Part shown: positions 45,793 through 46,619 of the stretch, in pieces
Position numbering within the stretch: the stretch's first letter is position 1
Layout of the letters: each line of letters begins with the position of its first letter
Virus genome (UHGV): UHGV-0149956
Length of the DNA stretch: 64,000 nt
From: a virus
Direction: 5' to 3' (one strand)
Program-made: the position numbers and the translations under genes
The notes under the pieces: generated by a model
The model's database searches: none
Seen by the model: the letters and a program-made list of their open reading frames with translations, nothing else
Told to the model about the DNA's origin: nothing

Positions 45793-46038
45793 TTGGCAGA
45801 ACGTGTTGATGATGCAGAGCTGAGCATGAATCAGTTAGAAGCTCTCAAAGACATGGCCATCGATAACATCAGAAAGCAGGCACAGGTCGTGAGCCAGGTA
45901 TTTACAGGGAAGTGTCGTTACTGCAATGAATCGATTGAATCAGGCATTTATTGTGACGCTGAATGTGCGCAATGGCACAGGGAAGAGCAGGCCGCAAAAC
46001 AGCGTAAATATGGCATGCGACCGGCAGGATTTGACTGA
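45793..46038 (+). CDS. Zinc-finger protein (TraR/DksA-like C4 motif)
   Basis: CRYC-x12-CDAEC spacing. Confidence 0.45.
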   Translation: MAERVDDAELSMNQLEALKDMAIDNIRKQAQVVSQVFTGKCRYCNESIESGIYCDAECAQWHREEQAAKQRKYGMRPAGFD

Positions 46039-46040
46039 TT

Positions 46041-46619
46041 ATGTTGCGCTTTACTGAGGAAGAGTTTCAGGCTTTTAGTGAGCGTCGAAATAAGGGGCGG
46101 TCCAGGCCAAAAACCAAAAAGGATCCATTCTTATCGCTTGCGCCGGTAAAAGAAGTTTCTCCACATGCGAAGGCACTTGCAGCACTGGCAAAGAACCCAG
46201 ACCTGCGCGACGGAAATTGCGAGCACTTCGAGCAGGTTTTCATTTTTGATTACTTCGAACGCAAGCACCCTGACATCTATGAGCTGTTGCATGCAACGCC
46301 TAACGGAGGGAAGCGTTCAAAAGCAACCGCCGGGAAAATGAAGGCTGAAGGGCAGAAAAAAGGTTATCCGGACATGAGTCTCGATAAAGCATGCGGTATT
46401 TATCACGGCATGCGAATTGAGCTTAAAGAACCAAATGGTAAAGCCCCGACGAAAGAGCAGATCGCCTGGATGCGCAGGCTTAGAGAGGAAGGCTACTACG
46501 TTGTTCTTGCGTATGGTGCAGAACAAGCGATTACCGCCATCCTGGAATACATAAGTCTTAAAAAGGGTGAGGCTATCGAGCATGTATTGAACGGCGATAA
46601 GTGGTTGCATATTGCTTAA
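46041..46619 (+). CDS. VRR-NUC domain nuclease-like protein
   Basis: HATPNGGKRS...GYPDMSL...GMRIELKEPNGKAPTKEQIAWM matches the VRR-NUC/PD-(D/E)xK pattern. Confidence 0.6.
   Translation: MLRFTEEEFQAFSERRNKGRSRPKTKKDPFLSLAPVKEVSPHAKALAALAKNPDLRDGNCEHFEQVFIFDYFERKHPDIYELLHATPNGGKRSKATAGKMKAEGQKKGYPDMSLDKACGIYHGMRIELKEPNGKAPTKEQIAWMRRLREEGYYVVLAYGAEQAITAILEYISLKKGEAIEHVLNGDKWLHIA

Follow-up and report, generated by a model that had tools for sequence, protein, structure and literature searches.

The stretch of DNA analysed here (the window, 64,000 nt of the virus genome UHGV-0149956) carries at positions 45793-46619 two adjacent open reading frames that are the genes pmgL and pmgM of bacteriophage P1, a model phage; the observation is real but ordinary, and the genes were already known. 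A megablast search with the region 45000-48000 returned 18 matches over the full length, with identities of 97-99.7% and exclusively to P1-type phages (Punavirus), and P1 itself (AF234172), in which the two frames are annotated as pmgL and pmgM, was 99.4% identical to the region. Judged by its sequence, the window derives from a P1-type phage-plasmid. The gene pmgL (45793-46038, + strand, 81 aa) begins with TTG, and pmgM (46041-46619, + strand, 192 aa) with ATG. A Shine-Dalgarno sequence, GAGGA, can be read 7 nt upstream of the TTG (45781-45785, + strand). This start codon was kept in 81 of 81 P1-like loci, and the alternative ATG at 45826 is disfavoured because residues 1-11 of PmgL align with its homologues. 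The PmgL of the window is identical to that of P1, while PmgM differs from its P1 counterpart at residues 190-191 only. The first-pass annotation had placed two ORFs at 45793-46619, and these exact coordinates were borne out, for real genes and not chance ORFs. The gap of 3 nt that it gave between them needs correction, since the pmgL stop codon (TGA, 46036-46038) is separated from the pmgM ATG by 2 nt (tt, 46039-46040).

Upstream of pmgL, the window is 100% identical to P1 at 45647-45800, so that the P1 control-region annotation (AF234172) transfers directly. It comprises two divergent Lpa-dependent late promoters, LP26 (45676-45694, - strand) and LPpmgL (45686-45704, + strand), which have a -22 box in common (45686-45694), and two predicted sigma-70 promoters of identical sequence in P1, P2pmgL (45696-45723, + strand) and P1pmgL (45729-45756, + strand). 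A strict scan for the sigma-70 consensus did not recover these last two. An operator of the C1 repressor, O26 (formerly Op82; ATTGCACTAATAATTTT, 45719-45735, - strand), is annotated here as well. It has 2 mismatches to the C1 operator consensus ATTGCTCTAATAAATTT and was confirmed independently of the annotation by a consensus search with a threshold of 3 mismatches, which found 9 sites in the window against 0.32 expected. As this C1 operator is located at the sigma-70 promoters, pmgL and pmgM should be kept silent in the lysogen until induction lifts the repression. The pair had been described as the head of a long early/accessory region. It does open the rightward pmgL-pmgV/accessory stretch of P1, behind a C1-repressed sigma-70 promoter; the description is incomplete in that an annotated Lpa-dependent late promoter is also present. 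It was only because of this annotated promoter, LPpmgL, that the two genes were called putative morphogenetic, and the legacy label 'putative morphogenetic function' is almost certainly wrong for both.

The right boundary of the two-gene unit is another C1 operator of the P1 annotation, Oppp (formerly Op83; TATGCACTAATTAATTT, 46626-46642, - strand), which departs from the consensus at 4 positions and was for this reason missed by the 3-mismatch search. A sequence scan gave no terminator-like site between pmgM and pmgN. The pmgN ORF (46653-46841) is in the same frame as pmgM, the sole separator being the TAA at 46617-46619, and two proteins of 266 aa, P0001 and P0002, are PmgM-PmgN fusions that arose naturally by read-through, with TTA in place of this TAA. 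The last three residues of PmgM (window 46608-46619) are hypervariable (HIA, HAA, YAA, YAT, FAT, SVA and others) among P1-like loci that are otherwise 97-99% identical. This variable end overlaps the annotated -10 element of PpmgN and comes just before Op83.

Both genes appear to be maintained. In the near-identical P1 loci obtained from a scan of viral contigs with PmgM, pmgL was intact in 80 of 81 and pmgM in 81 of 81, and the dN/dS values (0.05 for pmgL, 0.14 for pmgM) indicate purifying selection on both. A public collection contains a number of PmgL variant proteins (P0114, P0119, P0123, P0130, P0133, P0136, P0138 and P0107); variants are frameshifted at different points into an overlapping 43-aa +1 ORF (window 45926-46057), and one has lost two of the zinc cysteines through an in-frame deletion. 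The many frameshifted variants suggested that pmgL might be a decaying pseudogene, an idea rejected on the number of intact loci and the low dN/dS; given that only one of the 81 P1-like loci is frameshifted, such variants are rather rare pseudogenes or assembly errors. Neither gene is essential for plating, the efficiency of plating under CRISPRi being 1.3 for pmgL and 0.38 for pmgM (PMC10695390). The same paper, citing Gonzales et al. 2022, gives single-gene deletions of pmgL and of pmgM as viable, and a pmgM deletion has been made by recombineering as well (PMC10583621).

The second protein, PmgM, is a genuine nuclease of the VRR-Nuc family (PF08774; PD-(D/E)xK superfamily), as the first-pass annotation had it. 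In a phmmer search it matched the PDB entry 4QBL, psNUC, the VRR-Nuc protein of Psychrobacter sp. PRwf-1, with an E-value of 3.5e-17. Among PHROG families PmgM had full-length matches and a match to a 'Holliday junction resolvase' family (E 4.8e-27), which supports the assignment, whereas its Pfam VRR_NUC score (21.2 bits, E 3e-4) fell just under the gathering cut-off of 23.8 bits; in precomputed hits, many of 103 PmgM homologues carry PF08774. The AF2 model of PmgM (pLDDT 84) had 4QBL as its top Foldseek match (TM 0.82, rmsd 2.4 A, E 6e-10), followed by 4QBN, VRR-Nuc domains of FAN1 and archaeal Hjc, and it shows the restriction-endonuclease-like alpha-beta-beta-beta-alpha-beta fold. Loss of catalytic residues in a proper VRR-Nuc alignment had been named beforehand as the refuting test, and no such loss was found. 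PmgM has the glutamate of helix 1 (E61, 46221-46223), the aspartate of the PD motif (D111 in GYPD, 46371-46373) and E-x-K on the next strand (E127, 46419-46421, and K129, 46425-46427), together with Q140 (46458-46460; all codons on the + strand). In an alignment of 26 homologues with identities down to 37% these five residues are at least 90% conserved, and Q140 is nearly invariant. A conserved glutamine specific to VRR-Nuc enzymes (Q57 of stNUC) hydrogen-bonds the catalytic lysine (PMC4103454). Outside the core (residues ~58-175) PmgM has a lineage-specific N-terminal extension (residues 1-55) made up of a helix, a basic linker and a second helix, which is found only in the forms from enterobacterial phage-plasmids and is missing from short homologues of ~120 aa; a 26-residue insert with a helix lies between beta1 and beta2. 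A 'PmgM subfamily' of VRR-Nuc reportedly goes back to Iyer et al. 2006. PmgM is the name-giver of this subfamily (PMC9635880).

For the first protein the family was harder to see. PmgL consists of an N-terminal helix (residues 7-31) with the motif D6-x-x-E9-x-S11 at its tip, a four-cysteine site (C41xxC44-x9-C54xxxC58) and a C-terminal helix (56-73), and the AF2 model correspondingly gives a helix, a zinc knuckle and a helix, the last at a pLDDT of ~90. Searched against Pfam and NCBIfam it gave nothing significant, only sub-threshold treble-clef noise. In particular, the zf-dskA_traR profile (PF01258), which TraR itself matches at 50.7 bits, was not matched by PmgL at E-values up to 10 nor by any of 46 PmgL family members at E-values up to 1. 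Phmmer with PmgL alone against the PDB returned only chance matches to PHD fingers, and in Foldseek, which is uninformative for so small a helical protein, the model had no match with an E-value below 1 and TraR was not listed. The claim that this is a TraR/DksA-like C4 zinc finger was recovered only by profile-profile comparison and by a common PHROG. A HMMER search of the whole library delineated a family of 82 cluster representatives, proteins of 65-85 aa with the consensus M-x-D-x-x-D-x-A ... I..R ... TG-C-x-Y-C-x-E-(9-10)-F-C-D-x-D-C, and 46 family members all have C41, C44, C54 and C58. With hhalign this family aligned to TraR at 95.6% (E 1.1e-8, 65 columns), residues 4-68 of PmgL corresponding to 1-71 of TraR; TraR was also the best PDB match of the family profile (E 0.013), in register from residue 1, and phrog_54 is a full-length match for both proteins. 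On this profile comparison PmgL is a true but divergent, short-loop homologue of TraR.

The divergence from TraR takes several forms. The zinc site is CxxC-9-CxxxC in PmgL as opposed to CxxC-17-CxxC in TraR (9-10 residues in 40 of 46 family members), and the loop is 7 residues shorter, the deletion corresponding to TraR 47-53 and including the Si3 contacts R49 and K50. At the tip, DxxDxA of TraR has become DxxExS, with Glu for the second essential Asp and Ser for Ala, and five residues precede the first Asp in PmgL versus two in TraR. The prolines P43 and P45 of TraR, through which it binds RNA polymerase, correspond to S47 and E49 in the PmgL of the window. The TraR family is characterised by DxxDxA at the tip of the N-terminal helix, with D3 and D6 essential in TraR and in Orf73 (PMC9239242), and TraR needs P43/P45 to bind RNA polymerase and R49/K50 to contact Si3 (PMC9239242, PMC6970531). 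Across the PmgL family DxxDxA is present in 22 of 46 members and DxxD in 37 of 46.

The two genes had also been proposed to act as a pair. We looked for this pairing from both sides, namely at 77 genome loci with PmgM homologues (scan of upstream ORFs and tblastn) plus three further phage-plasmids, and at 80 viral loci with PmgL-family genes, in which VRR-Nuc neighbours were sought. Cases with a PmgL homologue ahead of PmgM were confined to close relatives, namely E. coli-type P1, a Salmonella element (PmgM identity 70%) and Pantoea alvi (locus L085, 58%). Where the identity was 53% or lower, in phage-plasmids of Citrobacter, Enterobacter, Serratia and Vibrio, the full-length PmgM homologues had no zinc-finger neighbour, and there was none at ~70 more distant VRR-Nuc loci. 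Conversely, a VRR-Nuc match was present in only 2 of the 80 loci with PmgL-family genes, weak and non-adjacent in both, and none of the 80 had an adjacent one; the neighbours there were primase-helicases, SNF2 helicases and regulators. A conserved pmgL-pmgM module was rejected on this restriction to close P1 relatives. What speaks for a functional pair, in which the zinc finger would target, activate or restrain the nuclease like an immunity or regulatory subunit and the two would act jointly in recombination, is the 2-nt spacing in one operon, with probable translational coupling, and the retention of the pair in Pantoea alvi and, despite a different left-hand context, in the Salmonella element. 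Besides the unpaired homologues, two facts weigh against it: psNUC works alone (PMC4103454), and PmgL is homologous to TraR, a protein that binds RNA polymerase. We regard such a partnership as very unlikely. The genes pmgL and pmgM are not a conserved module and are better not treated as a single functional unit; most likely their roles are separate. In the Salmonella phage-plasmid (GCA_011672225.1, locus L243, 1-2500) the pair is found downstream of a gene for a 2254-aa methyltransferase-helicase (DarB-like) and not of the baseplate gene 26; from this different left context it follows that the pmgL-pmgM unit moved as a block.

The reading that we favour, with a probability of about 0.6, is that of two unrelated accessory functions on one C1-controlled transcript, PmgM resolving DNA junctions or branches and PmgL modulating RNA polymerase. 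In the prophage, C1 would keep the sigma-70 promoter shut at operator Op82; upon induction or infection pmgL-pmgM would be transcribed, and the annotated LPpmgL would boost the pair later. With its family and fold established as above, the activity and substrate of PmgM can be argued from psNUC, to which this stand-alone VRR-Nuc nuclease is closest. The latter is a dimer with a sub-nanomolar affinity for four-way junctions, which it cleaves symmetrically (Pennell et al. 2014; PMC4103454). By analogy PmgM is most likely a dimer too, and it would bind four-way and other branched DNA and introduce paired Mg2+-dependent nicks through E61/D111/E127/K129. In this way it could resolve the recombination and replication branches of P1 concatemers, leading to headful packaging and cyclisation of the genomes. 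The two proteins have the same PD-(D/E)xK core, the same E/D/E-x-K residues, the conserved Gln and a structured beta1-beta2 linker, though PmgM has ~55 extra N-terminal residues and a linker that is 10 residues shorter. Debranching before packaging would give PmgM the role of T7 endonuclease I, T4 endonuclease VII, lambda Rap and RusA, an analogy of phage VRR-Nuc proteins to junction-resolving and debranching enzymes that has been drawn before (PMC4103454). T7 endonuclease I is in another VRR-Nuc subfamily than PmgM (PMC9635880), and the other three differ from it in fold or subfamily. Moreover, the yield of T4 and T7 is normal only with their resolving enzymes, whereas P1 can plate without pmgM; this dispensability would be explained by host RuvC and RusA, which can do the same job.

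Other activities can be envisaged for a VRR-Nuc protein. The extra 55 N-terminal residues and the 26-residue helical beta1-beta2 insert might block dimerisation and leave PmgM a monomeric flap or fork nuclease of the FAN1 type, in line with the presence of FAN1 VRR-Nuc domains among its structural matches and with the finding that the beta1-beta2 insertion of FAN1 prevents dimerisation (PMC4103454). However, the linker of PmgM is homologous to that of psNUC, a junction-resolving dimer (PMC4103454), and the FAN1 matches are weak (E 0.03 or worse, ~55 aligned columns) next to the TM of 0.82 with psNUC, which makes a monomer improbable. Still further from the evidence is the earlier suggestion that the nuclease degrades host DNA or that of a competitor such as a superinfecting phage or plasmid. 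VRR-Nuc domains can indeed be toxic, as in the T6SS effectors TseV1-4 (PMC9635880), where they act as structure-specific nucleases, and pmgM belongs to a resident phage-plasmid whose lytic growth does not depend on it (PMC10695390). Yet TseV1-4 form a clade of their own; they carry fused PAAR-like domains, and their genes have immunity genes and T6SS components as neighbours (PMC9635880). PmgM falls outside the toxin clade, in one whose members adjoin DNA-metabolism genes (PMC9635880), and PAAR-like fusion, adjoining immunity genes and T6SS components are all absent at pmgL-pmgM. No immunity gene is evident, neither PmgL nor PmgM matched a PADLOC model in a search for defence or anti-defence roles, C1 represses pmgM in the lysogen, just when a gene for prophage defence would have to be on, and the closest characterised relative is the junction-specific resolvase psNUC (PMC4103454). 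An offensive or defensive nuclease is, of all the readings considered, the one to which we give least credence.

For PmgL, action on host RNA polymerase is the more tentative part of the favoured reading. Binding to RNA polymerase and inhibition of rrnB P1 are documented for five phage homologues of TraR (PMC9239242). PmgL resembles F-plasmid TraR, lambda Orf73 and P2 Orf82 in its approximate length, in the acidic-tipped N-terminal helix, in the C4 zinc site bridging to a C-terminal helix, and in its early or repressor-controlled position in a mobile element; it differs from them in the CxxC-9-CxxxC site lacking an equivalent of TraR 47-53, in the DxxExS tip, in three extra N-terminal residues and in the failure to match PF01258. 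If it works as they do, its N-terminal helix would most likely enter the secondary channel of the host RNA polymerase, and PmgL would shift host promoter use early in lytic growth. This step is uncertain because the tip is altered and the Si3-contact loop is missing, and we put the chance that the P1 protein still acts on RNA polymerase somewhat below even. The alternative, which we consider less likely than not, is a zinc finger with another task, for instance binding DNA or inhibiting an enzyme as YacG does; its similarity to TraR would be only ancestral, and it would not act on RNA polymerase. It is suggested by knuckles of the FCS / DUF2116 treble-clef type, with weak DUF2116 matches in 26 of 46 family members, by YacG and MYND fingers among the non-significant structural neighbours of PmgL, and by the diverged tip motif and RNA-polymerase-contact residues of the P1 protein. 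Against it, PmgL and TraR are homologous over their full length and align in register from the N-terminus, and DxxDxA, meaningful only for proteins that bind in the secondary channel, is found in half of the PmgL family (DxxD in 80%).

Viewed across the family, the short-loop motif CxxC-9/10-CxxxC is shared by at least 82 cluster representatives. Conceivably, though we would not expect it on present evidence, PmgL-type proteins are an unrecognised short-loop branch of TraR that lacks the Si3-contacting loop, is missed by Pfam and still enters the secondary channel. Were this so, P1 would deploy a C1-controlled reprogrammer of host transcription with promoter effects unlike those of TraR and Orf73; it might, for instance, inhibit without activating. 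Binding of PmgL to RNA polymerase would let P1 join lambda and P2 as phages that reprogramme host transcription through the secondary channel, and it would provide a natural loop-deletion variant for dissecting the Si3 contact. The significance of the pmgL-pmgM finding goes little beyond annotation: PmgL can be named as a divergent TraR homologue, where Pfam-based pipelines leave it 'hypothetical', and it is mildly new that PmgL-type proteins would form a TraR branch unrecognised by Pfam.

Some features of the surroundings may be recorded here. To the left, the gene of the tail protein gp25 (44042-45259, - strand) encodes a CxC...CxH motif that resembles a SWIM zinc finger (FDCDCGRH ... VACKHVLH), gp25 having no Pfam match at E-values up to 0.1. 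To the right, there is an overlap of 103 nt between pmgO (46783-47445) and pmgP (47343-47969). Each has sub-threshold matches to the MptE-like profile PF01973, and the PHROG label of pmgO is 'alpha-2,3-sialyltransferase', so that the two may be a paralogous pair of glycosyl- or pyrophosphokinase-like enzymes. Over the window from 40000 to 64000, more than 500 records match some part, Stx-converting phages among them, and the coverage by any P1-like phage record reaches at most 74-78%; this partial coverage indicates a mosaic or insertion segment downstream of pmgL-pmgM that is absent from standard P1.
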